Source: Macrostomum lignano (lineage: Eukaryota). Taken from it: a DNA stretch of 64,000 nt. Of the stretch, positions 23,245 through 61,265 are shown piece by piece. The stretch is taken from contig NIVC01000471.1 of NCBI GenBank assembly GCA_002269645.1, positions 1 through 64,000 of the forward strand. Reading direction: 5' to 3'. Both the position numbers and the translations under genes were made by a program. Under the pieces are notes generated by a model, which was not told the origin of the DNA, ran no database searches, and worked only from the letters and a program-made list of their open reading frames with translations. Every line of letters begins with the position of its first letter. Positions within the stretch are counted from its first letter, which is position 1.

Positions 23245-25421
23245 ACTACATATCGTGCAGAAACTGCCAAGTTATTAGGCAGATTTGACGCAAAAAACGC
23301 AAATTATACTACTATCTGAAAATGAAGTAAGTAGTATACGAAAACTCTATCCTAAGCGTGATATATGGCAATATGTAGTTGTAATAATCCATGTGCTCAT
23401 ATATGTACATTAATTCCATGTACATTAATCCTTACTATCTCAAAATGGATATGTACATTAATTCCATGTACATTAATCCTTACTATCTCAAAATGGATAT
23501 GTACATTAATTCCATGTACATTAATCCCTATCCCAAATTGTCTATGTCTATCCCCAATTCTATATGTACGCAGTATGTGCATTAATCCACATGTACAGTG
23601 TCATCCCCAGACGGCCAGCGCGCGCGCACCAAAATTACAACTCGAAACCCTACTACATGTACAGTTGTACAATCTCATCCAAATGACTCAACTAATTGTA
23701 CAGCTCACATCGTATATAAACTATTTACAAAGAAGATATATTTACATTAAATCAGTAGCATATTACAGGAAATAATTTATATACAACATTACCAGCAAAT
23801 AAAATATACACAAAAAATTTACATTGTTTTTTTCAATAATTTTCTCTTCATAAATGATTTTAAACAAGTTTGACACGCAAAATATGTACAATAGATTTTT
23901 ACATTGGCAATTTCGCCGCATACAATACAAAAATGCTTTATGTACATTTGTATAGTAGTCTGTAACTGTTCATTACTTTAACATGCAAATTATGTACAAC
24001 AAATAGATTTTACTAATTTTATAATGCAAAATGTACATTGAATTGTCAGTCACCATTATTTATAGCCATAAGGCCTGCTGCAGGCCCCGTACATCCGTTT
24101 CGTCAGGACGCGCTGAAACGTCTTGTCCATACTGATCGTGTGTATAATACAAGACGCCTTGTCGCGCCTGAACTGAAACTGCGGCAGCTGCAGAGAGCCG
24201 CCGTGTAGCAGGGTGTTGCGCAAGTCGTCGCTACGCTCCCGAATCTCCGGAGTCAGGCGGATGCCCTTGCATTTCAGGACTTGGCTGCGGACACCAGCAG
24301 CATCCTCGACAATGTAAGTGTAGAGCTTGGCCCCCCCCACTTACAAAGTCGGTCATCCGGCTGCCTGCGGGCACCTCATTGGTCCACATTCCGAGGCTCG
24401 TGCCATGGGGCGGCTCCCATTGGCCCTCGGAATGCCGGTAAACGACCCTGTGTGGGAGAGAAAAACGAAATAATTAGTTCCACATGCTAACTATTCAATT
24501 CTAAAAGAATTTTTCCAATGCAATGCTTACGAGTCAGTGTCGCAGTAAATGGCCCGTTCGCCGAGCCCCTCCAATGCCTCGTACAGGCGCAGCTGGGCCT
24601 GCGTGGTCGTAAAGACTCCGATTGGCACATTGGAGTACCTGAATGGCCGCTGATTAAAGTAACGGTGCCGGTACTCTAGCAGCATAAACTCGCTGCCAAT
24701 CGGTTCGCAGGCCTTGACTTTGAGGTTGGGGTCGGTCAGCCGGGCGAGCCAGTCCTCGTAGCTGGACACAATCTCAGTCGAGGTCAGGTCGTCACGCTGA
24801 CAAAATTTGCCCCAGAGCCTGTGTAGTGAAAAGAAAAGCTACTGTTAGTAGAAGAAATCATTTAAAAAAACAAATTTTATGAATACTTACGAATTCAAAA
24901 AGATTTTCGCTACAAAGCGAAGTCCTGGGTTGGGCTCGACCTTGTCAAGCGTGACACCCTCCTTGGCGTAAAAATCGGCAATGTAGGCCGCCTTATCTTC
25001 ATCCGACATGCCGGGGGAGCCGCTCGATTCGGCCTTCATCTTGAGGAAGGCGTTTACATAATCACCGAACAGACCGGTCCGCTTCTCTGTCCAGTAGGCC
25101 AGCGCGTGAACAGCCTGCAGACGGTAGCCCAACTGGAAGGCCTTTTGCAGCTCCGGCGTTGCCCAGGTGCCAGTCAGCGCCCGTTTTTGGTCTGAGTGGT
25201 CGCAGCCGCTGCACTGCTGCTCCATACAGGTGCGGCAAAGCCCAAAAAAGAGCTTCTTTTGCACCCTGTTGGGCAGCAGCGGAATGTGCAAATCTGACGG
25301 CGGCAACACAGTCACTTTGGCAATGCCAAAGTAGCTAGCCAGCGCGTAAGAGTTAAACGTCTGCGGCGTCGGATGTTGCACCGGGTGGCCAATCGGGTAT
25401 GGGTCTTTCGACTGCACCGTC
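23245..25421 (-). mobile_element. Polinton-like element copy A: PolB-side terminus plus pPolB 3' exons
   Basis: TIR at 23245-23692, AT-rich 3' flank, then pPolB exons 24891-25421, 24531-24818 and 24056-24447. Confidence 0.85.
24056..25421 (-). pseudogene. Protein-primed family B DNA polymerase, C-terminal exons (motifs B and C), 5'-truncated
   Basis: KIFLNS|LWGKF and YCDTDS|VVYR reassembled across GT-AG introns at 24819-24890 and 24448-24530. PKLYTY...KCKGIRL (KxY motif). A +1 shift sits in the C-run near 24335. Confidence 0.9.
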
Positions 25422-26019
25422 ACTACGTAATGTGCAGAAACTGCTGGGTTTTCAGAATTCTGACGCAAAAAACGCAAATTATACTACTATCTGAAAATGA
25501 AGTAAGTAGTATACGAAAACGCTATCCTAAGCGTGATATATGGCAATATGTAGTTGTAATAATCCATGTGCTCATATATGTACATTAATTCCATGTACAT
25601 TAATCCCTATCTATCTCAAAATGGATATGTACATTAATCCCATGTACATTAATCCCTATCCCAAATTGTCTATCCCCAATTCTATATGTACATGTGCATT
25701 AATCTACAGTGTCATCCCCAGACGGCCAGCGCGCGCGCACCAAAATTACAACTCGAAACCCTACTACATGTACAATCTCATCCAAATGAGTCAACACCCA
25801 AGTTTTACAAAGCACGTTATATACATATTCCTATTTATATGTCAATTATTCAAAACCTACATGTAGCTGATTACACTACTACCTTTAGTAGAGTTACAAA
25901 TCTAGATTCTATTGAAAAAGACTGTATTCATATAGTCTCACATTGGAAAAGCGTATATTTTCATTTCAATAGTTGAAACAGAGAGCAATAACAGCAAGGA
26001 GACAACAGCAAGTTGAGAC

Positions 26020-26478
26020 TTAATTATAGCCTGTACTACCAAACCCTCCTGCACCGCGAATTGAGTGACTGCCAGCGGCCTCCTCTTCGCCATTTCCCCT
26101 ATAGAGATCCCTTACAACTACGGGAGCAATCAATACACGCTCCAAAACTAATTGAGCGATACGGTAGCCCCGAGTTATGAACCAGTCCGCATTGCCATGA
26201 TTAAATATCACCACAGTCAATTCTCCAGTATAGTCAGGGTCAATCACGCCGGCGCCCACTTGTATAGACTTGCGCAACGCTAGCCCAGACCGGCCGGCAA
26301 TCCGAGCGTAGGTCCCATCAGGCGGTTGGATTGAAATTCCGAGAGGCACCTGCGCAACCGACCCGGCCCGGACAACAGCATCTTCAGAGGCAAAGAGATC
26401 GTAGCCAACAGAACCGATCGTCTGGCGAGCCGGCGGGCAGGCACCTTCAGTCAGCAGCGACACCTTTAAAGCAGCCAT
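26020..26478 (-). CDS. dut: Trimeric dUTPase, intact and intronless
   Basis: All five motifs present: SVGYDL, RIAGRSGLA, AGVIDPDYTGE, RIAQLV, RGAGGFGSTG. Confidence 0.95.
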   Translation of the reverse strand: MAALKVSLLTEGACPPARQTIGSVGYDLFASEDAVVRAGSVAQVPLGISIQPPDGTYARIAGRSGLALRKSIQVGAGVIDPDYTGELTVVIFNHGNADWFITRGYRIAQLVLERVLIAPVVVRDLYRGNGEEEAAGSHSIRGAGGFGSTGYN

Positions 26479-26799
26479 GGTAAGTTTTTGGGTTATAATC
26501 AGTCACAGTGTTTACACACGGAATGGTTTATAGTTTTTTCATTCTAAATATCATTACTCGAAAAAATGGTAAAAATCTCAACGCAATATTTAAATTTTGC
26601 AAAACAATTTACTTGAAAAGAATGTGCATGTGGATAACGTAAGTGTGCATACACAACATTTAATGATATAGCAAGTTGAGATATAATACGAGGTGCATGA
26701 AAATTTAGATTGAGTGCAGACACAACACTTGATAAAACAAGATATGTACAAGGTGCATGAAAATAAAAATGCGTGCAGGCACAACATTAAATTGTCAAC

Positions 26800-27634
26800 A
26801 AAGCCCCGAGCCGGGGAACAGGCTGTCCAATTCTGCGGCTGTTTCATAATGTAAATCAGCCTCATACACCCGCCGCTCCTTCACCGCCGTGTAATACGCA
26901 CGCTCTTCAGTGGGGCTACCAAAACAATAGTCAGCTAGCTAGAAAAGGGAATGGTAAAAAAAGTTTTCCGCTATAATGCATTGAAATTTTGAATCAGCAA
27001 TTAGTTGCAAAAAAAAAGTTTTCGGATAAAATGCAATTATTTACCATGTCCAAGTCGGGCTCGCGGCGCCATTGTCGCAAAAATTCTTGGTATGCGGCCT
27101 CGTCAGCAACAGCAGCAGCTTCCCCACTAGCAGCAACCGCACTATGCAGCCCCATCCGAGGGGCTAAATTAATACCTAATCGGCTGCTCTTCTTCTTCAT
27201 CTGCTTCAGACTGCTACTGCTGCTGTTGCCTTCAATAGTCGCGGCGGCGGCAGCGGTGGCGACTGCGGCATGTTCACAGGGGCTGGCCCCAGCAGTCCAC
27301 AGCCATTACCGGGCTGGCAGCATTCATTACCGCAGTAGCCACCACCGCACCAACCTTGAAAGTCGTCGTCAATGCTGCTGCTGCTGTCGCCACTGATGCT
27401 GCTGTTGGTGCTGCTGCTGCTGCTGCTGCCGCTACTACTGTTGCTGTCATACGCCAGAGTTAAAACCGGTCGGGCGATATAACGATGTGGCGGGTTCCGG
27501 CCTACTCGACCGCCTCCAACCCCGCACCACAGGATTGAAGGGGTTTTGCCGCAACGCACTGCTACCGCCACCGCAACTAACTGCTCCGCCGGCTCGTCTA
27601 CACTGCTACGGCTGCGGTTGCTGCTTCTGTTCAT
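26800..27634 (-). other. ORF-X: unidentified, probably spliced or frameshifted low-complexity gene of the element
   Basis: TATAAAA at about 27711-27717 (minus strand), ATG at 27634, donor-like ATG|GTAAAT near 27047, and an open downstream segment PTEERAYYTAVKERRVYEADL. Confidence 0.3.
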
Positions 27635-27989
27635 TGTGTGCTAATGTGTGTGTGTGTGTGTGTGGTTGATCGCAAATTTGAAAAGATTTTCAGTCTCGCA
27701 GAGGTCCCGTTTTTATAGTGATTTTGCGAGGTCTCTCATTGGCTCCGCCAGCCTGCAAGCAAGCAAGCAAGCAAGCCTGCCCAAACCCTAGCCCCGCCAG
27801 CGAGTTAGTCAGTCTGACTCAACAACAGCAATATCTGTTTTAATAATAAAATTTCAAAGTCTCGGTTATTTTCAATTTCAAAATAAATGAAATAAGACCA
27901 TTTTTAATTCCAGAGATGTTATTTGTCAATTCCAGTTTATTCAAAAAGATGGTTTTCACATTATTAGAGTTGATATAATCACAGAAACA

Positions 27990-28295
27990 CAAATTCCCAC
28001 AAGTAAAAATTATACAATTGAGAGTTAATTTTGTCGCGGTCAAATTGACTGCAAACAATATGGTGCTAACAGTTAATACCCACAGGTTCGCAACAGAATT
28101 ATTATTATATATGCGCTGCCCAGACTGCGGATTGAAATGTTACAATCAGCAGTGCTTTAATAATCACCGCCAAAAGAACCGGGCTGGCCGGTCTCGCTGC
28201 AACACCACCCGCGTCTGCCCCAATTGCGGTTATCAGGAGGAGCTAAAAGCAGGCCAGAAGGAGCCGGAACACAAGTGCGGCTATATCAAAGTTAT
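27990..28295 (+). pseudogene. Rearranged fragment of the pPolB N-terminal and zinc-finger region
   Basis: VKLTANNMVLTVN joined to CPDCGLKCYNQQCFNNHRQKNRAGRSRC, paralogous to copies B and C. Confidence 0.8.
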
Positions 28296-28589
28296 TACAC
28301 AAACTATATATTCCCACAAAAGCAATAATTATACAACCCACACATTACGAATATGAATATTCGGTTGAGAGCTGCTGCAGCATCAGCAAAAGCAGCTAGC
28401 AGCAGAAGAAGCAACAACAGCAGCATCAACTGCTTCAACAGCATCAGCCGGAGCGGCCACCAGCAGCAGCAGCAGCAGCAGCAACAGCTAGCAGCAAACC
28501 TACACATTACGAATATGAATAATCCCACACCAAACGCAATGATTATACAGCCCACACAAAAGAGTTTTTTAGCAATTGTCTTAATCATT

Positions 28590-29396
28590 TCACTCGACAC
28601 GCATTGGGGGCAGTTTGGCCTTGTCGCTGCTGTAGATTAGCTTAATTCGCTTGTTCTGTTCCTTGATCACAGCAGCCCAGGCAGCAAAGGCCGGCTCGTG
28701 GGGCCCAATCTGATGGGCCGGGGTCTTGAAAAGCTGTTCATCAGTCAGGCCAGCAGCCCAGCTCTCGAGCTCAGTCGAGTCCGGGTGATACGAGTGCCAC
28801 CACTTGTAGCTGCTGCCGCTGCCGCTGCCGCCGTCAGTCGTAGAAAGCTTCTTCACCTGCGGCTGCAGTTCAATCGGTGGCGGGGTGCCAGCACTGCGGC
28901 GGCGGTTGCCATTGCCGTCACCATCATTGCTGCTGCTGCAGCTGTTGAACCGCGATGATGGTTCCGAGGCCGTCTTGGGTGGTGGCGGCGGCGGCGGCGA
29001 CTGCGAGGCAAACAGCGAATCAACGTCAGCATCCATCAGAGCAGTCCACAATTCAGGGGTGAACTTGATGGAATATTTCCAACGCTCGCCCTCATCGCAG
29101 CCGGCCGGGTTGATGCGATGCAGCCAAATCTGGCTGTTTTTCACTTCCAGAATCTTGCGGCCGCTCTCACCCAGTTGAAACCGCTTATGACGAGAGTCGA
29201 GGACGTGCAGAGACTCAATAATCGGCCACGCCCGTTTGAGATGCTCCCACTCGATGCGAGTCAGAAACACGCCGGGAAAACCGTGCTTGTAGTTACCGTT
29301 CTTGTCAGTGTAGAAACGCCGAATCTCAATCAGTTCTCGATCAGTATCGAATGTGGGCTTGCGCACAACATAATTGTCAACAAGTGGAATAGACAT
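28590..29396 (-). CDS. PC4/Sub1-family ssDNA-binding protein (268 aa; possible second degenerate PC4 repeat; Pro/Ser-rich tail)
   Basis: IEIRRFYTDKNGNYKHGFPGVFLTRIEWEHLK fits the PC4 signature (vdiR.fy.d..g...p...Gi.L...qw..L). Open frame with its own TATA box. Confidence 0.75.
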   Translation of the reverse strand: MSIPLVDNYVVRKPTFDTDRELIEIRRFYTDKNGNYKHGFPGVFLTRIEWEHLKRAWPIIESLHVLDSRHKRFQLGESGRKILEVKNSQIWLHRINPAGCDEGERWKYSIKFTPELWTALMDADVDSLFASQSPPPPPPPKTASEPSSRFNSCSSSNDGDGNGNRRRSAGTPPPIELQPQVKKLSTTDGGSGSGSSYKWWHSYHPDSTELESWAAGLTDEQLFKTPAHQIGPHEPAFAAWAAVIKEQNKRIKLIYSSDKAKLPPMRVE

Positions 29397-29485
29397 TTTG
29401 ACAGAGTTTCACGGTGATAGAGCTGTTGCAAAGAGTGTCGGAGCGAGCGAGCGAGAATTCTGAAAAATCTCTCAGCAGCGTGGTC

Positions 29486-29761
29486 CTTTATATACCCGAG
29501 AAAAGCGACTGTACTCTGAGGAGGTGAGGCTGCGGTCTGCATTTTTCGTTCCTACAGCACTACCGGTTGGTTAGATACACTCACATCCAATTACAATCTG
29601 TATGAGAACGAAAATGATGGGGTATTTTCAGACCCCATCTTTTCTATACCAAGTTGGGGTCTGAGTGTACACTAATTTGCAAATGCAGTACAGGGGAAAG
29701 GGAAATAATGCACACGCGCTCTCTGCTTTTGCAGCATCCCCTCCTGCAGGGGTATATAAAG
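29486..29761. promoter_or_regulatory. Divergent promoter with two identical GGTATATAAAG TATA boxes
   Basis: Minus-strand box at about 29486-29496, about 90 nt before the PC4 ATG. Plus-strand box at 29751-29761, about 85 nt before the pPolB ATG at 29845. Confidence 0.65.
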
Positions 29762-29844
29762 GAGATTGTGGGAGCATCACCAGTCACAGCCGCTTCCGCA
29801 TCAGCCACAATCACACCAGCATCAGCAGCATCAGCAGAAGAAGA

Positions 29845-32545
29845 ATGGCATCAAAACGCCCAGCCGCTGAAGCCGCCATTTCAGCCTTGTGGGGACAGGC
29901 TGGCCCCTCCAGGCAGCAGCAGCAACCACAGCAGCAGCATCAGCCTCCGCCCGCAAAGAGGGGACGACAGCTAGGTGAGTCTTGCAAGTCTGTGTAAAAA
30001 TTTCTTTTTCATCTTTATCTTTTACGAAACTTCAAATTCGGGATTATTGAATAATATTGGGCTGTTCTCTGTAAAAACTGCTTTTTCATCTTTGGCATTC
30101 ATTTGGCTTTCGCAAACTCAAAATAAGGCTTATTGAAATAATAATAAGGGGCGGGCAGGCCGGTATTCAGGCGGCAGTGATAAAATCAACCCCCCCCCCG
30201 ATTTTTGGGCATGATGATGTAATCACCGCTGCAATTGACAGTAGGGGTTTTGGCAGCAATAAAACTTGGCTGCTACAGTGAGGGTTATTAATCAGACAGC
30301 TTTAAAAATCCAAAAGCGGCCGCGCGGTATTGTTGCTAGGTGTCAAGGAGGCACAATGGAGGCACGTGCTGATAGGGGGTTTTCTTAAATTTTACAATGT
30401 CTGCTGCGGCAGGATCTGTGTTATCAAGGGTCATCAATCAAACATTTTTGACAGCCTAAAATTCGAAGCGGGTTAATGAACCCCACATTTCTTTTGTTGC
30501 TACGTGTCGGAACGTGCCGAGTTGGGGTTTTTACAACTCGCCGATTTTTGTTGCTTGGGCCTGGGGCTATAAAATTGCTGCTGCTGCAGGGCAATCAATT
30601 AAGTTTTTGACAGTTTTTAAAATCCGAAGCGGTCAGAATTTTAGTCACCATGCGCATTTTTATTGCAGATTTGGCTCAATTTCAACCCCCGCCCCAGCCC
30701 GACACTGTTGAAGGCGATGGTAAGGAGTTAATTTTATTTCATGAGTCATTCACCCGCCGCCTCTCGCAATTCTAATTTCAAAACCCTCCATTTTTCAGGC
30801 TTCATTGCACACCTGGGCGGGGCAAAGGCCCTGCCAAAATTTAGAGCCAAGGGCTACGAATATGAAGTAGCATTAACAAATACTACCGATGTTCGCTTAA
30901 CGATTGCAGAGGTTATTTCTGTACTCTGTGCGGACCTACACAGTGATGATTTCATCTCTGCCAAACTAACGGCGGATAACATGCTGCTCACGGTTAATGT
31001 CCCGCCCGTCCGCGCCGCCCGCTTCACTGCAGAGCTTGTTTTCAAGCATATAAACAAGGTTCTGCAGTCGGACTCCAGTGTCTTGGGCAACAACTTTAAA
31101 TTTTTTTGCTGAAGGCCTAGGGGCGGCTGCGGCAGCCTAGATGCGGCGGAGAAACACATCCAGGCTCGCCATTCAATTTAGGGACGAGTAAAAAATCTTG
31201 CGCATTTTAATTTGCATTTTTATTAATATACAAATGTTTTAGTCTTTATCAACCATCACACAGGCCGAGCCTTTCGGGGTTGACATGCTACCCCAACTGC
31301 TGGCTGTTCTGAACGCCCAGTCACCCGGCTGGGATTTCGGCGTTCGTGTGTACAGCGCGGAGGAGGGCAACACGTGCGTGTATGCTCTGCCCGGCCACAC
31401 GGTGCTGAATCTGCACCTAATTGGTGGGCATTTAAATACTGTGTGTAAAGTGCCGCCATTTTTCGGGGCCCGCCGCTATTGCGACAGCTGCCAGCAGCCG
31501 TACGACTGCATCTCTGCGCTGAGCACAAGTGTGCCAATACCTGCCCTCAGTGTAAAGTGCCCGGCTCCAATTGTAAAAGCCTGTAGCGTTACTACAAACG
31601 CTGTGCTGTCTGCGGAATGAATTGTTACAATCCGCAGTGCTTCGAGAACCACCGCCAGAAAAACCGGGGCGGCAGGTCTCGCTGCAGCTCCATACGCCTC
31701 TGCCCCAAATGCGGGTATTGCGAAGAATTTAGTCGGACAAAAGGAGCCGGATCACAAGTGCGGGCATGTCAAGTTCCCACTGTGTAAACAGTACGACGAG
31801 GCCGGCTCGCATTTGTGCTTCGTCAAGGCTCCCAAAGTGAAAGCTTCGACTATGCCGTACGTGTTCTACGATACGGAAACGTACACGGATGAGGAGAAGC
31901 AGCATCACGTGCATCTGGTGACTGCCGTCACGTGTTGCGAGACCTGTTCCGGCCGGGCGTTTCCGCGCGAGACTTGCCGCCTCTGCAATGGCCTGCATAG
32001 CACAGCCAATTGTCTGACTGGCCGCGATCTGGGGGAGGAATTCTCCAATTGCGTCAGCCACTCAAACTGCGCCTGCCAAATGGCCGATTTTGTGGCTGGG
32101 GGCCCGGCCTCGCTGAATGCTTTTTTCGCCTGGCTGAGCACAACTTTCCGAGGCGGCGCCATTGTTGTCGCGCAAAATGCATCAGGCTACGATTCGTTTC
32201 TACTGCTTGGAGCTCTGCTCAACGGCCTGGCCAAGAAGCGGCCCCAAGTACTGTTCCAGGGCAGCCGGCTAATGAGCATGACGGTGGATAAATTGTCGAG
32301 GATGCGGCCGGTGTCCGGAGCCAGGTCCTGAAATGCAAGGGCATCCGCCTGACTCCGGAGATTCGGGAACGCAGCGACGACCTGCGCAACACCCTGCTAC
32401 ACGGCGGCTCTCTGCAGCTGCCGCAGTTTCAATTCAGGCGCGACAAGGCGTCTTGTACCATTCATACGATCAGTATGGACAAGACCTTTCAACGCGTCCA
32501 GACGAAACGTCTGTACGGAGGCTGCAGCAGGCCTTATGGTTATAA
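29845..32545 (+). pseudogene. pPolB copy B: exons 29845-29974, 30669-30719, 30799-about 31170, 31264 onward; palm deleted
   Basis: Phase-1/phase-1 compatible GT-AG junctions (RQL|D, GD|G). Zinc-finger cluster, ExoI VFYDTETY, ExoII QNASGYDSFLL. A deletion joins VDKL to the C-terminal EDAAGV...KCKG. Confidence 0.85.
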
Positions 32546-32815
32546 ATAATAATGTAGTCCTTGCGACTGACTATTAAATGTAAATTTTTGTATTGCTAAA
32601 ATTATTTGAGTTAAATCTATTTGTTGTACGATAATTTGCATGTCAAATGTACATAAAGCATTTTTGTATTGTATGCGGTGAAATTTCCAATGTAAAAATC
32701 TATTGTACATATTTTGTGTGTCAAACTTGTTTAAAATCATTAATGAAATAAAAATTATTGAAAAACAATACAAAATTTTCTGTATATTCTATTTGCTGAT
32801 AATGTTGTACATAAA

Positions 32816-35800
32816 ACTACGTATCGTGCAGATAGTGGTTGATTTTCAGATGTTTTGACGCAAAAAACGCAAATTATACTACTGTCTGAAAATGAAGTAA
32901 GTAGTATATGAATACGCTATCCTAAGCGTGATATACATGCCAATATGTATTCGTATATGTGCATTAATCCTTGTACTCATATATGTACATTAATCCCTAT
33001 CTATCCCAAATTGTACATGTCTATCCCTAATTCTATATGTACGCAGTACATACTTCTACAATAATCTACATGTACAGTGTCATACATTAATCCCAAGACG
33101 GCCCACGCGCTCTGCGTATGAATCACCAAGATTACGTGTACAACTCGAAACCCTACTATATGTACAGTTGTGCGCAGAGGTGAGAATCGGTGTACAATCT
33201 CATCTAAATGAGTCAACTAATTGTACAGCTCACATCGTATATAAACTATTTAGAAAGAAGATATATTTACATTAAATCAGGAGCATTTTACAGGAAATAA
33301 TTTATGTACAACATTACCAGCAAATAGAATATAATAGAATATAGAATATAGAATAATTCAATAATTTTCTCTTCATAAATAATTTTAAACAGGTCTGACA
33401 CGCAAAATATGTACAATAGATTTTTACATTGGCAATACAAAAATGCTTTATGTACATCGACATGCAAATTACGTACAACAAATATACTCTGATAATTTTA
33501 ACAATACAAAAATGTTCATTGAATTTTCAGTCACAATTAGAATACATTATTTATAGCCATAAGGAACTGCTGCGGGCCCCGTACACGCGTTTCGTCAGGA
33601 CGCGCTGAAACGTCTTGTCCATACTGATCGTGTGTATGGTACAAGACGCCTTGTCGCACCTGAATTGAAACTGCGGCAGCTGCAGAGAGCCGCCGTGTAG
33701 CAGGGTGTTGCGCAAGTCATCGCTACGCTGCCGTATCTCTGGAGTCAGGCGGATGCCCTTGCATTTCAGGACCTGGCTGCGGACACCGGCCGCATCTTCA
33801 ACAATGTAAGTGTAGTGTTTTATGCCGCTCCAACTCGCGAGTGAACCACTCGGTCTCGTGGCGGATGTGGCTCAGAGGCTGCCGTTTGAGCGGGTGGACG
33901 ACATCCTGATCGGGCATACACTGCTCGCAGCCATGGTAGAAACAACCATGAAACTGCAAGACTGTTGCTGGCCTCATCAAAGCCGTCCACCTTGCGGCCG
34001 AGAATGACCGCCTCGCCGCCAGTCGAGTCGCAGGTGCGCAGCCGCCCGCAAAATTCGGTGGTATTCAAATAGGCCAGCCACTTGCGCGCCTTGAACGACT
34101 GCTGGTCGGCCTGCCGGGCAATCACGCCGACCGAGTTGGGCTCCATGAATTTAGTAGTAAATACGGCCATTGCTAAACTGGCAATCGTATTGGCCTGAAC
34201 AAACGGTTCCAGGCCGTCGCAAATGTCGCCAATTATCGCCCTGTACTTGATGCAGCCCTCGCGAAGCAGCACCGTGTCGCTCAAACAATAATCGAGATAT
34301 TCCCGATTAAAGTTGAACAACTCGCCCTGTCGCGAGGCCAGCCAAGCAGAGATGGAGTCGTAGTCATTGTTTGCCTTGCCGCCATAATATTCAATAGCCG
34401 GGTAAGGGCCAACGTAGTTCCAATTAGCCGGCTTGTTAAACTCGTGGGGAAAGGTCCCCTTGGCCAGCTTTGTGTCAGCGAGCCCCAGCGCTTTGGGGAA
34501 TTGCGCAAGCGGGAATGGTATAAAATTTAACGAATCTTTAAATACCAATTTATCCACCGTCATGCTCATTAGCCGGCTGCCCTGGAACAGTACTTGGGGC
34601 CGCTTCTTGGCCAGGCCGTTGAGCAGAGCTCCAAGCAGTAGAAACGAATCGTAGCCTGATGCATTTTGCGCGGCAACAATGGCGCCGCCTCGGAAAGTTG
34701 TGCTCAGCCAGGCGAAAAAAGCATTCAGCGAGGCCGGGCCCCCAGCCACAAAATCGGCCATTTGGCAGGCGCAGTTTGAGTGGCTGACGCAATTGGAGAA
34801 TTCCTCCCCCAGATCGCGGCCAGTCAGACAATTGGCTGTGCTATGCAGGCCATTGCAGAGGCGGCAAGTCTCGCGCGGAAACGCCCGGCCGGAACAGGTC
34901 TCGCAACACGTGACGGCAGTCACCAGATGCACGTGATGCTGCTTCTCCTCATCCGTGTACGTTACCGTATCGTAGAACACGTACGGCATATTTGAAGCTT
35001 TCACTTTGGGAGCCTTGACGAAGCACAAATGCGAGCCGGCCTCGTCGTACTGTTTACACAGTGGGAACTTGACATGCCCGCACTTGTGATCCGGCTCCTT
35101 TTGCCCGACTTTTAATTCCTCCAAATAGCCGCAATTAGCGCAGACACGGATGGAGCTGCAGCGCGAACGGCCGGCCCGGTTCTTCCTGCGGTGATTGTCA
35201 AAGCACTGCTGATTGTAGCACTTGAGGCCGCAGTCAGCGATGCGCTTAAAGTCGCACAGGCTTTTACAATTGGAGCCGGGCACTTTGCACTGATAACAGA
35301 GGTTGGCACACTTGTGCTCAGCGCAGAGATGCAATCGTACGGCTGCTGGCAGCTGTCACAGTGGCGGCGGGCTCCGAAAAATGGCGGCACTTTGCACACA
35401 GTGTTTAAGTGCTCGCCAATTAGGTGCACATTCAGCACTGTGCTGTCTGGTAGGGCATACACACATGTATTGCCCTCCTCGGCAGTATACACACGAACAC
35501 CGAAATCCCGGCCTGGCCACTGGGCGTTCAGGACAGCCAGCAGTTGGGGGAGCACGTCAACCCCGAAAGGCCCGGCCTGTGCAATGGTTGATTAAGACTA
35601 AAACATTTGTATATTAATAAAAATGCAAATTAAAATGTGCAAGAACATTATTACTCACCGAATACAATTTGGCAGCAATTTGTAGCTCCCCAGTCAGCTT
35701 CTTTTGCAGTGGGGAGTCGGCCTTGATGGTTTGCCACGTATTCTTAGTAATGGCCTTGGCCTGCAGATCCGCGTATGCCTTGGCCACCACAAGTGCCCGG

Positions 35801-37368
35801 ATTAAACAGCGCTTGTCGCGGTTAGCGATGACCACGTAGTTATACCCCATAGCATGCCTGGCCTGGATGTGTTTCTCCTTCACATCCAGGCTGCCGCAGC
35901 CGCCCCGCGGGACCCAGGCCTTGAGCAAAAACAATTTAAAGTTTTTGCCCAAGACACTGGAGTCTGATTGCAGAACCTTGTTTATATGTTTAAATATTAA
36001 CTCTGCAGTGAAGCGGCTGCGGCGGACGGGCGGGACATTGATAGCGAGCAACATGTCGTCGGCAGTCATCTTGGCCGAGACGAAATCATTGGCGTGTAGG
36101 TCAGCGCAGAGCGCAGAAATTATTTTTTCGAATGTGCTTCGAATATCGATAGTATCGGCGAAGAATACCACATATTCGTAGCCCTTGGCTTTAAATTTAG
36201 GCAGGGCTTTCGCCCCGCCAAGATGCGCATTGAAGCCTTAAAAAATGGAGGGTCTGAAATTAGAATTGCGAGAGGGGGCGGGTGAATGACTCATGAAATA
36301 AAATCAACTCCTTACCATCGCCTTCGACAGTGTCGGGCTGGGGCGGGGGTTGAAATTGAGCCAAATCTGCAATAAAAATGCGCATGGTGACTAAAATTCT
36401 GACCGCTTCGGATTTTAAAAACTGTCAAAAACTTAATTGATTGCCCTGCAGCAGCAGCAATTTTATAGCCCCAGGCCCAAGCAACAAAAATCGGCGAGTT
36501 GTAAAAACCCCAACTCGGCACGTTCCGACACGTAGCAACAAAAGAAATGTGGGGTTGATTGACCCCCGCTTCGAATTTTAGGCTGTCAAAAATGTTTGAC
36601 CCTTGATAACACAAATCCTGCCGCAGCAGAGATTGTAAAATTTAAGAAACCCCCCTATCAGCACGTGTCTCCATTGTGCCTCCTTGACACCTAGCAACAA
36701 TACCGCGCGGCCGCTAAAGCTGTCATAAATGCCTGATTAATAACCTTACCTGTAGCAGCCAAGTTTTATTGCTGCCAAAACCCCTACAATTGCAGCGGTG
36801 ATTACATCATCATGATAAAAAAATTTTGGGGTTGATTTTATCACTGCCACCTGCCCGCCCGCTGAGTCACGTTCGCGCGCGCGCGCTCGCCACAGAATTG
36901 CTGTTTTTGCTTCTCTAGTACAAGGATTAGTCATATAGCCCCCTGAAATTTTATGGCTATCCTCTACACACATTATTCGGCTATACTGCTGCTGCGGATA
37001 TTCTCTAAAACTCTGTTATTTCATTAGGCAATTGAGAAATCCGAAAACAGTTTCCTCCCTTTACTTCAACATCTATGGCAGGAGGAGGACAGCCTGACTT
37101 CAGAAATTTTAAGCCAAAATGAATGCTAAAGATGAAATGCAGCTGTGGTTTCAAAGAAAACCCATATTTCAACAAGCGTTAAGTTTGCAAATCACACAAA
37201 TGCTAAAGCTGAAAAGCGCAATTATACAGCCCTTTTTTCTGATTTTAGATTTTGCAAATGCTAAAGATAAAAAGCATAGTTTTACGCGCGCGCAGAGACT
37301 CACCTAGCTGTCATCCCCTCTTTGCGGCCGGAGGCTGATGCTGCTGCTGCTGCTGCTGCTGCTGCCTG
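32816..37368 (-). mobile_element. Polinton-like element copy C (inverted): PolB-side TIR plus pPolB exons 1 (partial) to 4, with the palm deleted
   Basis: TIR at 32816-33217. Exons 37304-37368, 36316-36366, 35659-36236 and 35576 onward. ExoIII YCLSDTVLL and VSR-like KVDG...QFHGCFYHGC. Deletion junction near 33815. Confidence 0.87.
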
Positions 37369-37708
37369 TACTCTGGATACATACTTCTACATGTGCATTA
37401 TTCCACCTCTACATGTACAGTGTCATACATTAATCCCAAGACGGCCCACGCGCGCTCTGTATATGAATCACCAAGATTACTTGTACAACTCGAAACCCTA
37501 CTACATGTACAGTTGTACAATCTCATCTACTACTGCCAAATGAGTCAACACCTAAGTTTACAAAGCACGTTATATGCACATAACCATTTGTTCAATTATT
37601 CAAAACCAAATGTACTTTTAGTAGAGTTACGAGTCAAGATTCGACTGAAAAAGATTGTATTCATATAGTATTCAAATTCACATTTGAAAAGTGTATATTT
37701 TTTCATTT
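37369..37708 (+). repeat. Remnant of dUTPase-side TIR and flank (probable left end of copy D)
   Basis: Paralogous to about 25700-25965. Interrupted by the TGTTACA LTR end at 37709. Confidence 0.75.
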
Positions 37709-41746: not shown

Positions 41747-42324
41747 TCAAATGTTTTAGAATAATGTGTTGCGGGGGTGTGCCCCTCTGACGATGACTAT
41801 GATCGTTGATGTTGCTGTTGAATCAAATAAGTCGGAGGTTCGATTTGTTTCTCTCGATCTCTAACCTTCAACAAGATGTTTATTACTAATCAATGTTAGT
41901 AGCAATTCCTAATAGGATATTGATCACGCAATTACGCAAATTTGTTAAGCAATTCAGTGAAAATGGAGCCACAGGCTACTTATCGATATTGTTGCACGAA
42001 TTGACGTTTGTCCGGATTTATCTCTGTTAAATCGGGATATTAGAGTTCAGGCCCGATTGTTGGGGCAAGCTAGCGGAGCAGTTGAGGAGGCAAAGAGGCG
42101 GAGAGCCGAGAACCGGGAAAAAACTGGAGAGAGGCTTCATTCTCACTGAACGCTAGTATATATATGATTTCTATAACGCATTTCATTGGTGTTCGCTTCA
42201 CGCAATAGGATCTTTACTGGTGCACAAGCATGTGCTGTACTTTCCTGATAGAAAAACCTTCTGAAGTTCGCATTAGATTAAAAAATAACATTGGGCATAA
42301 CATGCTTAAATTAAGATCACTTCA
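41747..42324 (-). repeat. G2 3' LTR
   Basis: Direct repeat of 54534-55111. Sense-strand ends are TGAAG...TTTGA. Confidence 0.95.
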
Positions 42325-52587: not shown

Positions 52588-54520
52588 GCAATGATCTGTG
52601 GAATGGGTTTACTTCGAGTGGTCTTGCAATTAAGAGTTGAAAATATAATCCGCAATTTTGTAACAATAAAGATTTGAAATAGCGTGAAGCAATAGCATCT
52701 GAGCGTGATTTGCGGTCATCTATCCAGGGTCAGTTTTTTGTTTTATATAAGCAAATTTTCAATATGTAGAGCTTCGGTAGCTGTAGTATCATTTATCAAA
52801 AGTGTGAGTTTAGAGCAATTTTGAGCAAGTGTTGAACAGTTGTATAAAGTAGAACTGAGTAGAGTCGGCTGATGCGCCTGTACTAATTATAATATAGCTC
52901 AGCGGTGGAGCAGTTAAAATATTTCATAGAAGCAGCAATAAAAGCTGAGCCTCATCCTTGGATTGAGTTTGATTAGAATTTGAACAGATTTTGGTAGAAG
53001 ATTCAGCGGAGGCGGCAATTTGCGCGTTAATGCCTTTGAGATCGAACGGATTGGGTTGAAAACTCAGCTGGTGAGTTGTGGTTAAGATGCCAGCGGATGT
53101 GGCGATGCGTGTTGAGTACGCGATTTGAATTTGTTGTAAAAGGAACGAAAGAGACTCTGCAGAAGTCTGTGGAAGCAAGGCAGAGGCGTATGAGTGGCGT
53201 GCCAAAACTTCAAACTTGGAACACGATGAGCATGAACCAAGCACCAGTCCTGGGTTTAAGTGTGTAATTGACAAATAGATTCGGCCGACTAAAATAGAAT
53301 TATAATTACCTGAAGGCAGGTGTAGAGGTCCTGTGTATAGGACAATTGCCGCGGGCTTATCGCTGCTAATCATGAAGAAATGATGTGGCTGCTTGAAATT
53401 GAGAAACAAGGAATAGGGAATAGGAGAGGGTGGGTAGCAATCACAGCGTAATTTTTATTTTGTTTTGAGAAATTTTGAACGACTGCGAAGGCTAAAGGGC
53501 TGGTGTATGGGTAGACGAGGGTGGTAGGTTGTACTTTGCGGAGAAGGAAAGCGGATTGTAGTATAAATAAGAGCTTGGGACGGAAATTATTCCCATTAGA
53601 GAACAATGGGGGTTTCTGATGGGAAAGCCCAAGGAGGGGAAGCAGCCATTGAAAAAAAAATGAATTCCCTGGGGTAAGAGAAGATTGAGAGTACTGAGAG
53701 TGTCGCACCGGTGTGACAGAATCATTCTCCCTCACTTTCTATCCCTGGGGATGAGAATTGCAGCGGAGAGAAGAGCTGGAGCGGATCACAGCTGAATTGT
53801 GGTAGGGCGTTGAGCCAACTGAGTGAGGCGCGGAGCCGATAGGGCGTTTTAGCCAACTGAGTGAGGCGAACTGAGGCCAGTTGAGGCTGGTTTGTGAACT
53901 GATGCAGACCGGAATGGAACTAGAATTTCCAGAAGACGAAAAACGATGCAGATCTGCTGTGAACCAGCCGGAGTAAAGGCGGAATTCTCCGGACGAGAAC
54001 TGGTTTTGCGAGGCTAAAAATAGAAAAAGGATTGAGACAATGCTGGTTGCCTGGTTGGGATTTGTCGCCCAGGCAGGATATTTATAGAACAGAGTGAGAT
54101 TGTGGAGAAAGAGCAAGGTGAACTTGACGTTCTTTGAGGTGAGGCGAGCAAAGTACTCGGAGAAAGTATATCAGAAGGGCGTAAATAGTGGGAATGGGTG
54201 GATTCCCATCGGAACCGGTTTGAGGACTGGTTCGCTGCTGGTTCTCCGAAGCGGGAGAGCGATTAGAGGTTGTAAATTTAAGAACATTAAATAACACTAA
54301 TCTTTTCTACGATTCTACAGCTTGGGAGATTCATACACGTAGTATTTTTGTAGTTTTGCAAATTGTATTGGTTTTTATATTTTGTAATTTTTTTTAATTT
54401 TTATATTTTTTACTGACCCTTTCTAAGATGCCATCACTAGCTCATAGCCAGCTCCACGGAGGTGTTCACCCCAGCATATTAAAGCCGGGCATGTTGAAGG
54501 AAATTACGGAGAGAAACAAG

Positions 54521-54532
54521 GTCGGGGAGCCA
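54521..54532 (-). promoter_or_regulatory. G2 primer-binding site, probably tRNA-Asp
   Basis: TGGCTCCCCGAC lies 1 nt after the 5' LTR. It is complementary to the 3' end (…GTCGGGGAGCCA) of invertebrate tRNA-Asp(GTC), as recalled. Confidence 0.7.
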
Positions 54533-54533
54533 G

Positions 54534-55111
54534 TCAAATGTTTTAGAATAATGTGTTGCGGGGGTGTGCCCCTCTGACGATGACTATGATCGTTGATGTT
54601 GCTGTTGAATCAAATAAGTCGGAGGTTCGATTTGTTTCTCTCGATCTCTAACCTTCAACAAGATGTTTATTACTAATCAATGTTAGTAGCAATTCCTAAT
54701 AGGATATTGATCACGCAATTACGCAAATTTGTTAAGCAATTCAGTGAAAATGGAGCCACAGGCTACTTATCGATATTGTTGCACGAATTGACGTTTGTCC
54801 GGATTTATCTCTGTTAAATCGGGATATTAGAGTTCAGGCCCGATTGTTGGGGCAAGCTAGCGGAGCAGTTGAGGAGGCAAAGAGGCGGAGAGCCGAGAAC
54901 CGGGAAAAAACTGGAGAGAGGCTTCATTCTCACTGAACGCTAGTATATATATGATTTCTATAACGCATTTCATTGGTGTTCGCTTCACGCAATAGGATCT
55001 TTACTGGTGCACAAGCATGTGCTGTACTTTCCTGATAGAAAAACCTTCTGAAGTTCGCATTAGATTAAAAAATAACATTGGGCATAACATGCTTAAATTA
55101 AGATCACTTCA
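54534..55111 (-). repeat. G2 5' LTR
   Basis: Direct repeat of 41747-42324; followed by the PBS. Confidence 0.95.
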
Positions 55112-57742
55112 CTGCGACAGGGACTTCAAAAACTTCAGATGCTATTTCAGCAAGTTCAGGGGCTGCTTCAGGGGATACTTCAGGGGCTTCAGCTATCTCA
55201 GCTGGTCTTCTTGACAATCCGTCGGCATTGGAATGCTTTGCACCGCTTCTGTGTTCAATGTCGAACCTGAATTCATTTAGACGCTCTATCCATCTACCTA
55301 AGATTCGGTTGCTTCAGTCTATCTCATGAGCCAAATTATCGCTTTATGATCAGTTCAAGCTAAGAATTTCTTGCCGATCAGATAAAATCTGAAATGCCTC
55401 ATAGCGTCGACAAGGGCTAACAATTCTTTCCGAGTAATGGGGTATCGCTTCTCAGATTATTTCATTGCTCTACTAAAATAAGCTATTGGTCGCTCTATGC
55501 CATCACTCTGGATTTGGCCAAGGCATGCGCCAATCCTGTCGTCACTGGCATTTGTGTCGAGCACCATCTTCACATTCTCATCATCGACATATTCGGGGTA
55601 GGCTAACACTTCAGTGGATATCATTCGCTGCTTTAGGGACTCAAAGGCTTCGTCATGCACTTTGCTTCACTTAGATTGGAAATTCTGGACTCCTTTTCGG
55701 GTCAATTGGAATAGGGAGTGAGCCACTTCGGCATAATTTTTCACAAATCGGCAATAATAATTGCATAGGCCAAGAAAACTGCGTAGTTCTTTTACGTCTT
55801 TGGGACGGGGCCAAGTTTAAATTGCTTCAATCTTCGTCTTGTCTGTTTGAATGCCTTGTCGGCCAATCACGTGTCCTAAATACTTTAACTCGTGATGGAA
55901 AAGATTGCACTTTTTGGGTCTCAACTTCAGACCTGCGGCAATTAGTCGCTTAAACACTTCTCTTAAGTGTTCTAAATGGTCTGCAAAAGTTTAGGAGTAG
56001 GCTATAATATCGTCTATATAGGACATAGCGAACTTGTGTTGAATTCCTAATAGTACTAAATTCATTAGACGTTGGAAGGTTCCGGGGGCATTGGAAAGTC
56101 CTTGGGCCATCACTTGGTGTTCAAATTGGCCTCTAGTTAGGGTGGAGAAGACGGTTCTATGCTTATCTTCTTCTTTGATGGGGACTTGCCAGTATCCTGA
56201 GTTTAAATCAAGGCTGCTAAAATATTGGCTACCAGTTAGGTGGGAGAAGGTCTCTTGGATATTGGGGAGGGGGTAGGGGTAGTAATTAACTCTCGAGTTG
56301 AGCACACGGAAATCGATAACTATTCTAATGGAACCATCTTTCTTGGGGACAATTACTAAGGGGGTGGAGTAGGTTGAGTAACAGGGTCTAATTAGGTTTT
56401 TGGCTAACATATCAACTAATTGGGCGTCAACTTGCTTTTGCAAGTGTGGGGGGATGCGTCTGGCTGGGATTCTAACGGGAGTGGGGTCTTTGATGGATAT
56501 TTCGTGGGTTACTAAGTGTGTCAGGCCCATGTCTAATTCATTCTGGGAAAAAGCTTCACGGTTTTCTTTCATTAAGTCGATGACTGCTTTTCGCTGTTCA
56601 TCTGACAGTTCAGGGCCAAGGCTCACTTCATTAATCCATGAATCTTCTGTACATTGAGTCTGGTTGACTTTCGCAGGGGGTTGGGAGCTGGGGGGTTGGG
56701 TTTGCCAATAGGTTAGATCTTTAGCTTTCATGGGTCTGGCTAAGCCAATTAGGGAAGTCTTAGTTAAATTCACATCTACTGGGTGGCGGTTAATAATTTC
56801 GACAATTCCTCTGCCTTCTTTCATAGTTACTAGGGTTGGAACCATTTCTAATGAGAAATCGCGGGTTCGGATAGTATCGCCAATGGCTTCTATGGTCATG
56901 GGGGTGCCGTAATTCGATTCACAATTCTTGGCTAACTTTACGGGTATTCGGAGAGCACTATTAGCTGGGATGATTGTTCTTTATTGAGTATAAACTCGGC
57001 AAACTTTCACGGGTAGGCGGGTATACTGCATGGATATACAAGTACCTTCGTTAAGCACTAGCATTCCTTTGGCTAGCTGAATGCTTTCGCATTGGGATAG
57101 GAAAAATTCCATTCCTAAAATATTATCGCAATCATGTCGGCATAGGAGGAAATCAACTTCAATTTGGATATCGCCAAACTTCACTTGGGCGGATACTTCT
57201 CCTTCTAATTGAACTGGGTTACCGTCAAATGTACTAATACTTTGCTAGTTTCTTGGATTTGATCGGCACGGAATAGCTTAGACCAGGTTGAGCGGCTCAG
57301 GAAATTATTTCTGGCGCCTGTGTCTAGCAGAAAATCAATGGTCTCTTTCTGGATATCGCCGACAATTACAGCTTCATAGCCTTCTAGCTTAGTCAGGTCG
57401 ATTCGGGATGGGGAATTGGGTTTTGGCTTTTGTCGCTTCCTTGAGCGACTTTCAGCACTGGATAGAGCATTATTGACTTCAATCGCATGGGATACATGGG
57501 GTGCAAGCGCAGTGGGTACATGGGGTGCGGACGCATGATGTACATAAGCTTTGGTCGCATTGGTTACATGAGAGGCGGTCGCATGAGGAGAATTGTACAC
57601 ATGGGGGTCATGGGGGGCATTTGGCATGGCATCGTCGGCATCATCAAAGGCAAGAAGTGAAAAATTGTTGGGGGAGACAGATATCGCGTTATTTACAGGC
57701 ATTGGCTGTACATGGGAGGTTTTGCGGGGATAGCGGAAACCA

Positions 57743-60700
57743 CGCGAGACTTGCCGCCTCTCCAATGGCCTGCATAGCACTGCCAATATTCTGACTGGCC
57801 GCGATCTGGGGAAGGAATTCTCCAATTGCGTCAGCCGCTCAAACTGCGCCTGCCAAATGGCCGACTTTGTGGCTGTGGGGCCGACCTCGCTGAATGCTTT
57901 TTTCGCCTGGCTAAGCACCACATTCCGAGCCGGCGCTATCGTTGTCGCGCACAATGCATCAGGCTATGATTCATTTTTACCGCTTGGCGCTCTACTTAAC
58001 GGCCTGGCCAAGAAGCGGCCCCAAGTGTTGTTCCAGGGCAGTTGGCTAATGTGCATGACGGTGAATAAATTGGTATTTAAAGACTCGCTAAACTATATAC
58101 CAATCCCGCTTGCGCAATTCCCCAAAGCTCTGGGGCTGGAAACAAAGCTGGCCACGACCTTTCCCCACGAGTTCAATAAGCCGGCCAATTGGAACTACGT
58201 GGGTCCCTTCCCGGCTATTGACTATTATGGCGACAAGGCAAACAACGATTACGGCTCCATCTGTGCTTGGCTGGCCTCGCGACAGGGCGAGTTGTTCAAC
58301 TTTAATCGGGAATATCTCGATTATTGTTTGAGCGACACGGTGCTGCTTCGCGAGGGCTGCATCAAGTACAGGGCGATAATTGGTGAAATTTGTGACGGCC
58401 TGGAACCGTTTGTTCAGGCCAACACAATTGCCAGCCTCGCAATGGCCGTCTTCACCACTAACTTCCTGGAGCCCAACTCGGTCGGCGTGATTGCCCAGCA
58501 GGCTGACCAGCAGTCGTTCAAGGCGCGCAAGTGGCTGACTTATTTGAATGCCACTGAATTTGGCGGGCAGCTGCGCACGTGCGACTCGACTAACGGCGGC
58601 GAGACTGTCATACTCGGCCGCAAGGTGGACGGCTTCAATGAGGCCAGCAACACTGTTTTGCAGTTTCATGGCTGTTTCTACTATGGCTGCGAGCAGTGCA
58701 TGCCCGATCAGGATGTCGTCCACACGCTCAAGCGGCAGCCTTTGAGCCACATCCGCCACGAGACTGAGTGGTTACTCGCGAGTTGGAGCGGCATAATTAC
58801 AGTGTTCGTGTCATTTGGGAGCATGAATACAACTCTGTATTGGCATCGCAGGCTGATTTTATCGCCGCAACTGACCATCTGCGCGCCCCGCTCAAGATGG
58901 AGGATGCGCTCTATGGCGGGCGCGTAGTGTTTCATCCCGCATGCTGTGGCCAGCGAGACTGAGACGCTTAAATATCGGGATGTGGTGAGTAGTGATACTA
59001 CTAATATAGTAGAATATTTGTATTTTTGTATAGTAGAATTTTGCAAAAATATGAAAAACCGTTTATGAAATATATATTTGTTTCATTGACTGCCATGCGG
59101 GTCTCTCTGTACCCGACGGTGCAGTCGAAAGACCCGTACCCGATTGGCCACCCGGTGAACCACCCGACGCCGCAGGAGCTCGATTCTGACGCGCTGGCTA
59201 GCTACTTTGGCATTGCCAAAGTGACTGTGCTGCCACCGTCGGATTTGCACATTCCGCTGTTGCCATACAGGGTGCAAAAGAAGCTCTTTTTTGGGCTTTA
59301 CCGCACCTGTATAGAGCAGCCGCAGGAGCAGTGCAGCGGCTGCCACCCCTCAGACGAGGAACGGGCGCTGACTGGCACCTGGGCAACGCCGGAGCTGCGG
59401 AAGGCCTTCCAGTTGGGCTACTAACTGCAAGTTGTGCATTCGCTAGCCTATTGGACAGAGCAGCGGAATGGCCTGTTCAGCGATTACGTCAATACCTTCC
59501 TCAAGTTGAAGGCCGAGTCGAGCGGCTCCCCCGACATGACTGATGAAGACAAGGCCGCCTAAATTGCCGATTTTTTACGCTAAGGAAGGCGTCACGCTGG
59601 TCAAAGTCGAGCCCAACCCTGGACTTCGCTTTGTAGCGAAAAAATTTTTGAATTCGTAAGTAATCATAAATTCTGTTTTTTAAACGATTTCTTCTACTAA
59701 CAGGAACCAATCTTTTCACAAGCTCTGGGGTAAATTCTGTCAGCGTGACGACCTGACATCGACAGAAATAGTTTCCAGTTACGAGGACTGGCTCGCCCGG
59801 CTGACCGAACCCAATCTCGAAGTCAAAGCCTGCGAACCGATTGGCAGCGAGTTTACGCTGCTTGAGCACCGGCACCGCTACTTTAATCAGCGGCCGTTCC
59901 GCTACTCCAATGTGCATATCGGGTTTTACGCAGACACACAGGCCCGGCTGCGCCTGTACGAGGCCTTGGAGGGTCTCTGTGAACGGGCCATTTACTCCGA
60001 CACCGACTCGTAAGTATTGCAGGCTGGATAATTTCTTTTAGAATTGATTACGTATCAATTCCTAACATGTGAAATCCGAACTAATAGCCTATTTTCTTCC
60101 CCCCACCCCCAACACACACACAGGGTCGTTAACCGCCATTCCGAGGGCCAATGGGAGCCGCCCCTATGGCACGAGCCTTGGAATGTGGACGGGACGGATG
60201 AGGTGCCCGCAGGCAGCCGAATGACCGAGTTTGTGAGTGGAGGGCCCAAGCTCTACACTTACACTGTCGAGGATGCGGCTGGGCGGAGGAGCCAGGTCTT
60301 GAAATGCAAGGGCATTCGCTTGACTCCTGAGATTCGGGAGAGCAGTAAGGACTTGCGCACCACGCTGTTACACGGCGGCTCTCTGCAGCTGCCGCAACTT
60401 CAGTTCGGGCGCGACAAGACGTTTCAGCGCGTGCTGACTAAACGAGTGTACGACGGGGCTGTGTGCAGCCAGCCTTATGGTTATAAATAATGCGGCCCTT
60501 GTGACTGACTGACTATTAAATGTACATTAAAACATTTCTGCTTGTAAAAATTTGTAAGAGTAAAATCTATTTGTTGTTTTACATATTTTGCATGTCAAAT
60601 TTACATAAAACCGTTTATGAAGAGGAACCGACCGACTATACAAATGTACATAAACCTTTTGTATCGTATGCAGTGAAATTGCCAATGTAAAAATCCATTG

Positions 60701-61265
60701 TACATATTTTGCGTGTCAGACTTGCCTAAAGTTATTTATGAAGCGAAAATTATTGAAAAACAATGTAAAATTTTCTGTATATTTTATTCGCTGGTGATGT
60801 TGTACATTAATTATTTCCTGTAATTTGCTACTGATTTATTGTAAATATATCTTCTTTGTAAATAGTTTATACATATACGACGTGAGCTACACAATTAGTG
60901 TACTCATTTGGTAGTAGTAGATAATATTGTACAGCTGGCGCGCGCACTCCGACCCACCTCTGCATATACTGCGCTGTACACGTAACAATTAGTGTTTCGA
61001 GTTGGAATTGTACATATAATCTTGTGGGGTTGACGATTCAAGTACGCAGAGCGGGGGCTGTCGTGTAGATTGGGGATTAATGTATACACTGTACATATTA
61101 GAAATTGTCATAGAAGTAGAATAATGCGCAAGTGTACATATAGAAGTATGCACTGTACAGGTAGACATGTACAAATTGAATTTGGCATAGACATAGAAGT
61201 AGACAATGTACATATACAATTTGAGATAGATAGGGATTAATGTACATATACGAATACATGGGATT
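57743..61265 (+). mobile_element. Polinton-like copy D, right part: pPolB exons 4-7 and inverted PolB-side TIR (truncated)
   Basis: Exons 57743-58984, 59101-59655, 59722-60009 and 60124-60490. YRDV|VSLYP, LNS|LWG and TDS|VV junctions. Stops, frameshifts and two mutated acceptors. The TIR runs from about 60898. Confidence 0.87.

Follow-up and report, generated by a model that had tools for sequence, protein, structure and literature searches.

A reduced Polinton relative in Macrostomum lignano with an intron-split pPolB gene and no integrase or capsid gene found in its copies

The repeated element in the 64,000-nucleotide stretch of Macrostomum lignano DNA analysed here (the window) is probably an old, reduced offshoot of the VSR-class Polintons, a self-copying satellite whose copies are integrated in trans by the integrase of another Polinton. 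It is a TIR-bounded unit carrying a spliced pPolB gene, and whole units, a diverged second family and non-coding derivatives that seem to have moved recently are found elsewhere in the genome.

In the window the element is present as six broken, nested pieces at 23,245-37,708 and 57,740-62,045, as mapped by self-comparison and probes (Table 1); no copy is whole, every one being broken. The pieces are interrupted by LTR retrotransposons at 38-57.7 kb, which are unrelated to the element and are the reason why the window has any rve integrase matches at all. The original prediction had read one repeat of 370-450 bp as a TIR, in forward orientation at 23245, 25422 and 32816 and inverted near 60.9 kb; the forward copies stand as described, and the inverted one, at ~60.9-61.26 kb, consists of the inner part only, without ACTAC. 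That the repeat is a true TIR is borne out by other contigs, where it bounds whole units. The dUTPase, PC4 and pPolB genes lie where they had been placed, with Pfam matches to PF00692, PF02229 and PF03175, respectively. The site at 27.8-28.3 kb, suspected of being a capsid or integrase remnant, instead holds short pieces of the element's own pPolB. This slot between ORF-X and PC4 (28060-28290 in the window, and in five other copies) contains mosaics of 110-250 bp from the 5' half of pPolB that are 79-87% identical, differ among copies and in one case are out of gene order.

Table 1. Element features in the window, with positions counted from its first nucleotide
Feature	Position	Strand	Remarks
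TIR, copy A, polymerase side	23245..23692	+	starts ACTAC
Copy A pPolB, 3' part	24056..25421	-	cut at 25421 by TIR of next copy
Copy A pPolB exons	exon 7 24056-24447, intron 6, exon 6 24531-24818, intron 5, part of exon 5	-	
TIR, copy B/C, dUTPase side	25422..25796	+	starts ACTAC
dUTPase	26020..26481	-	PF00692 E 4e-31
ORF-X, two exons	26795..27634	-	low-complexity; this copy frameshifted
Variable slot with short pPolB 5'-half pieces	28060..28290	+	pieces differ between copies
PC4-like single-stranded-DNA-binding protein (predicted)	28590..29396	-	PF02229 E 6e-6
PC4/pPolB divergent intergenic region	29397..29844	.	putative promoter
Copy C pPolB	29845..32815	+	internal deletions; ends with exon 7 end and 3' UTR
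Copy C pPolB exons	exon 1 29845-29974; exon 2 30669-30719; exon 3 from 30799; exon 4 partial	+	
TIR, copy D	32816..33170 (3' limit approximate)	+	starts ACTAC
Copy D pPolB, exons 1 (part) to 4 and exon 7 end	33547..37368	-	internal deletion at 33815/33820
Inner TIR piece and dUTPase-side 3' sequence, rearranged	37391..37708	+	
Copy E pPolB, exon 4 (part) to exon 7	57740..60490	+	frameshifts, stops
TIR, inner, diverged part	60911..61259	-	terminal ACTAC absent
Copy F, pPolB exons 3-4 fragment	61265..62045	-	

When the genome (G000, 764 Mb) was searched and the best-scoring candidates were scored, TIR-to-TIR units were recovered on C1263 (48014-58456; 10,443 bp, with the gene order inferred from the window), C157 (54556-64414; 9,859 bp) and C694, where the unit bears three insertions. 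Each of these three has its own frameshifts or deletions, and frameshifts or insertions occur in most copies examined outside the window. Whole units such as that on C1263 confirm the order TIR-dUTPase-ORF-X-PC4-pPolB-TIR and the seven exons of pPolB (about 1,300-1,360 codons), and TIR-to-TIR units elsewhere measure 9.5-10.4 kb, the earlier size estimate having been ~10.3 kb. Exact genomic matches to the terminal pattern number 111, and its reversed control has 0. Among the best 100 of the 111, 64 ends form 32 TIR pairs. pPolB lies within 12 of these (one of them an outer pair enclosing another), 18 are palindromic or left-arm derivatives and 2 are unclassified; pair and copy counts include duplicated haplotypes, since the window locus has apparently been assembled a second time at C513:443-479 kb (the junction is identical). 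A subtype of 9.5 kb, A2 (L035-L038, on C566, C260, C1159 and C2757), has the same TIR and a spliced pPolB, but its left arm is non-coding where dUTPase, ORF-X and PC4 would otherwise lie; a hidden gene in this arm was considered and rejected, as no frame is conserved across all four copies. Non-coding giant palindromes of 2.6-12 kb (L011 at C657:75348-84724, and others on C982, C2205, C600, C409, C1379 and further contigs) share the element's left end and carry 6-bp target duplications (TSDs). Their arms reach 4.2 kb at 99.9% identity among the matches listed, and they are 94-100% alike between insertion sites, which points to recent movement.

The polymerase matches PF03175, with the phi29 polymerase as its best PDB match, and its motifs A, B and C are intact once introns are removed. 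It contains a VSR-like insert (E 0.005; E 0.024 in a second search). Profile search of the element found no helicase, and no sequence match to a terminal-protein domain was found in it. ORF-X has no match in Atlas, Pfam or PHROGs and is absent from subtype A2 and family B. For PC4, the protein search gave no match at E<=0.01 and the fold search a best E of 0.017; the searches assigned its C-terminus to no family. Structures predicted in this analysis were of low confidence (pLDDT 45 and 35). One family B variant (L054:8238-9248) has an extra low-complexity ORF of 337 codons behind PC4, with no family match.

Integrase, capsid, ATPase and protease sequences of the resident Polintons, used in tblastn against 10 element stretches, gave nothing under E 0.16, and with probes and profiles from relatives no match in the 15 element stretches searched (127 kb) was better than E 0.18; as a control, the probes and profiles match resident Polintons with best E values of 1e-43 (tblastn) and 1e-69 (profile). 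The retrovirus-like integrase scored at best E 0.5-1.6 in the 15 stretches (controls to 1e-69) and the double jelly-roll (DJR) major capsid protein E 0.16-0.22 (controls to 1e-64). The packaging ATPase and the adenain-like protease had no match in the element stretches, nor had the minor capsid, for which the probes are weak even on controls. The resident Polintons account for at least 73 DJR capsid and at least 150 integrase matches, many in long open frames, and none of those listed falls inside the 32 TIR pairs, in a scan whose capsid profile misses the capsids of families C and D and which read through all pairs but five over 10.5 kb. A genome search with PF04665 returned 0 matches, although resident Polinton ATPases exist. 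The predicted lack of integrase, capsid and ATPase genes therefore held in all 15 element stretches, searched by means sensitive enough to find the ordinary Polintons of this genome; full-length copies with an integrase/capsid module, such as would mark an ordinary deleted Polinton, were not seen, and the diverged second family is likewise without the module. As Polintons are defined in the part of PMC5499653 consulted, polymerase and integrase are both required within the element; ours fails that definition, yet it would work like a Polinton.

The second family, B, is represented by C173 (9.0 kb) and C24 (8.8 kb), with PC4 and pPolB between TIRs, and about 30 further loci are suggested by genome search. 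Polymerase cores of families A and B are 68% identical, with dS above 1.8 or saturated. The dN/dS ratio of exon 4 is 0.06-0.27 in 18 of 21 pairs (the other 3 were not computable), that of PC4 0.09-0.20 overall and 0.09-0.14 within family A, that of dUTPase 0.23-0.59 among copies, and that of ORF-X exon 1 0.24-0.49, with one near-identical pair at 1.15. Saturated silent sites between A and B, together with low dN/dS, indicate that the reduced layout is old and under selection. One could instead take the copies for ordinary Polintons that have been deleted and are decaying, as all copies in the window are broken and most others are frameshifted or interrupted, but it is hardly credible that two families with saturated silent sites would then share the gene loss under strong purifying selection, with ends unlike those of the residents and no resident Polinton having a close polymerase. 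From these comparisons the element appears to be an old lineage under purifying selection and not a deleted Polinton.

All element ends in families A and B read 5'-ACTAC, those of family B starting ACTACT; TIRs measure about 370-520 bp in family A and 1.2-1.3 kb in family B. Exact 6-bp target duplications are present at 9 of 10 independent sites (7 of 8 in family A and its derivatives, 2 of 2 in family B); the tenth matches at 5 of 6 bases, and one duplication among the sites is a G run. Such duplications at the insertions speak for the helper-dependent Polinton derivative proposed in the original prediction rather than for a pure linear plasmid. Exact ends and duplications of a fixed 6 bp are what integrases typically leave, and because no integrase is encoded in the element, it would have to come in trans.

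The genome contains at least four ordinary Polinton families. At C2285:163-187 kb and C1704:1-21 kb a single Polinton insertion is shared (TSD GAGGGG), nested in another Polinton, and both families have a dUTPase and a kinase-like ORF. Polinton ends are of the form (AGT)2 or (AG)3, in contrast to the 5'-ACTAC of the element, which thus lacks the 5'-AG... terminal motif: the resident Polintons C67 and family C end 5'-AGTAGT, as does the relative L063, which has a 6-bp target duplication (the end of a third resident family is ambiguous). Because of this difference, the residents may not recognise the element's ends, and among the integrase matches listed in the genome we found no integrase gene with ACTAC ends. 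The element could then be one half of a split (bipartite) Polinton, whose ACTAC-ended partner holds integrase and capsid but no polymerase. The ACTAC ends are private to families A and B, no resident Polinton end seen having them, the 6-bp duplications need an integrase, and the terminal pattern would overlook a partner that, like family B, has just the first five bases in common. We nonetheless consider such a split unlikely, because no listed capsid or integrase match overlaps any of the 32 TIR pairs of family A (the profile misses family C and D capsids) and the only candidate partner, family D, has a polymerase, dUTPase and ATPase of its own. Suspicion had fallen on family D as a polymerase-less partner because ACTACGG occurs upstream of its integrase, at a distance of 760 bp; it was ruled out once pPolB, together with dUTPase, ATPase and protease genes, was seen in the matching flank. 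At the far end, family D is interrupted by an LTR element, and its ACTAC may be due to chance.

The unusual terminal bases would also fit an unrelated resident transposase that makes 6-bp duplications and uses these ends, the polymerase merely amplifying free copies, and the spread of non-coding palindromes, 97-100% alike, with TSDs over many sites is reminiscent of foldback elements. This is very improbable, as 6 bp is also the duplication of L063 and of intact vertebrate Mavericks (PMC8097293, in part). Nor do we favour the idea that the element integrates itself, for instance by a cryptic action of the VSR-like nuclease in pPolB together with host repair: such a domain is present, and neither ORF-X nor the C-terminus of PC4 was assigned to a family, but the VSR-like domain also occurs in relatives that keep an integrase, ORF-X is lacking in subtype A2 and family B, and the exact ends and fixed duplications are typical of integrases, which makes this reading very improbable. 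Integration by the integrase of another Polinton is thus the explanation we prefer.

The phylogeny of the polymerase fits an origin among Polintons of the VSR-like class (described in PMC10748475, as far as consulted). The closest database proteins (51-98% identical) are labelled Macrostomum lignano, all others being 30-42% identical. Families A and B form one clade with support 1.0 in two FastTree trees, sister to P0027. The resident endonuclease-VII-type Polintons are distant from this clade (19% identity), and C234, the only resident of the VSR class, is a degenerate copy that does not group as its sister. In a tree with more taxa (midpoint root, no topology test), the clade joins L067 and P0167 at 0.98. 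L067 is a Polinton with integrase, capsid, protease, ATPase and PC4, and since this nearest relative with known context keeps these genes, the direction of change is loss. L067 also encodes a TATA-binding protein (3144-3701; PF00352 E 7e-34) in addition to PC4 and has a weak BIR match. Scans of viral contigs with three queries found no relative of the element. We found no description of such an element in the literature searched, Repbase/Dfam curation and some founding papers and reviews lying outside that search; bioRxiv 2025.04.19.649669, in the part consulted, treats Polinton-type insertions in a flatworm, with introns outside its scope.

All six pPolB introns are GT-AG. Intron 4 splits motif A (RDV/VSLYP), intron 5 splits motif B (NS/LWGK) and intron 6 follows motif C (DTDS/V); the six sites are the same in family B, with intron sequences unrelated between A and B. 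In contigs of three of three sequencing runs, from three studies, intron 6 of C1263 is skipped as an exact 81 bases, these runs being guessed to be RNA with no run on record as such; contigs of a fourth run, of no recorded kind, do not show the skip. Among the joints listed, some pieces of run contigs end at the borders of introns 4 and 5. In the nr protein ALD16274.1, a family B polymerase, the exons are joined across introns 4-6, either from cDNA or by prediction; the text of PMC4490696 and part 1 of its supplement 2 contain no link to its origin. Spliceosomal introns imply, by inference, that the element's genes are transcribed in the nucleus. The original prediction went further and saw splicing as an adaptation of this element, which does not hold up, as GT-AG introns in pPolB occur in 6 of 80 related loci (L067, L070, L075, L086, L088 and L092), where they cluster in conserved motifs, and one in L088 is identical to intron 5 in codon and phase. 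Their presence in L067, at other positions, counts against splicing being special to capsid loss, since L067 bears integrase and capsid genes. Introns alone are thus not new, the nearest relative with known context being an intron-bearing Polinton. Introner-derived introns occur in dinoflagellate Polinton-like elements (PMC12166617, in part), and intact vertebrate Mavericks are intronless in the section of PMC8097293 consulted. Among early-ending relatives, 14 of 37 stop within motif B. Intron-split pPolB genes therefore exist, and screens that call only uninterrupted ORFs miss them.

The most probable cycle, drawn from established knowledge of phi29, adenovirus and Polintons, is the following. 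The element's genes would be transcribed and spliced in the nucleus; pPolB, primed by protein at the ACT-AC ends, would replicate the excised linear DNA with displacement of a strand, with PC4 coating the displaced strand and dUTPase keeping uracil out of the copies. Template switching may generate both the snap-back palindromes and the mosaic slot, and a retroviral-type integrase from another Polinton in the same nucleus would insert the copies. Kapitonov and Jurka (2006) reportedly described non-autonomous Polintons mobilised in trans with 6-bp duplications, deletion products sharing the TIRs of autonomous elements. The non-coding palindromes fit that description, whereas the coding units are an independent, old lineage with its own ends. 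More tentatively, the element may represent a distinct class of nuclear self-synthesising satellites, former Polintons that shed virions and integrase, retain a protein-primed polymerase spliced by the host and survive as free linear replicons with private ACTAC ends. Helper with integrase, polymerase-coding satellite and non-coding palindromic parasites would then make up a three-tier system, possibly with a partner segment; should the latter exist, this would be a segmented Polinton.

Linear plasmids of the cytoplasm and mitochondria (e.g., yeast killer plasmids with a helper plasmid; abstracts of PMC13348850 and PMC10583447) are alike in being capsid-less, protein-primed and TIR-bounded and in their helper dependence. 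They also have palindromic deletion derivatives and, to our knowledge, occur outside the nucleus, lack spliceosomal introns and leave no 6-bp duplications by insertion, whereas every copy of the element seen is chromosomal. Transpovirons, too, are small linear TIR elements derived from Polinton-like viruses that lost the virion module and are carried by helpers (PMC5499653, in part). They parasitise mimiviruses and have as their hallmark an SF1 helicase fused to an inactivated pPolB, an arrangement that the element does not share; it keeps its catalytic motifs, is spliced and resides in animal chromosomes with TSDs. Closest are the VSR-class Polintons/Mavericks of vertebrates, molluscs and marine nematodes, which have the same class of pPolB (35-42% identity), long TIRs and 6-bp duplications, with PC4 and pPolB introns also in L067, but which carry integrase, capsid, ATPase and protease and measure 13-25 kb (PMC10748475, in part) as compared to 9-10 kb. 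Replication and integration appear to be uncoupled across different elements in this laboratory-kept animal lineage, which bears on whether polymerase, integrase and capsid act in cis, and the element would illustrate a route from virus to nuclear plasmid-like transposon. The recent non-coding passengers mark activity and offer a natural system in which to look for free linear intermediates and the integrase donor.

The remainder of the window is also rich in repeats. The LTR retrotransposon at 41747-55115 has LTRs 99.8% identical and a 1,959-codon ORF with a long envelope-like stretch between gag and protease that has no PDB match; L137 contains a similar element. It is flanked by pieces of a second, interrupted gypsy-type element (38281-41746 and 55991-57963). 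Dense minisatellite arrays fill 300-21400, and inverted pairs resembling foldback elements lie at 10523-12583 and 13806-18541, the latter 96% identical over 1.6 kb.
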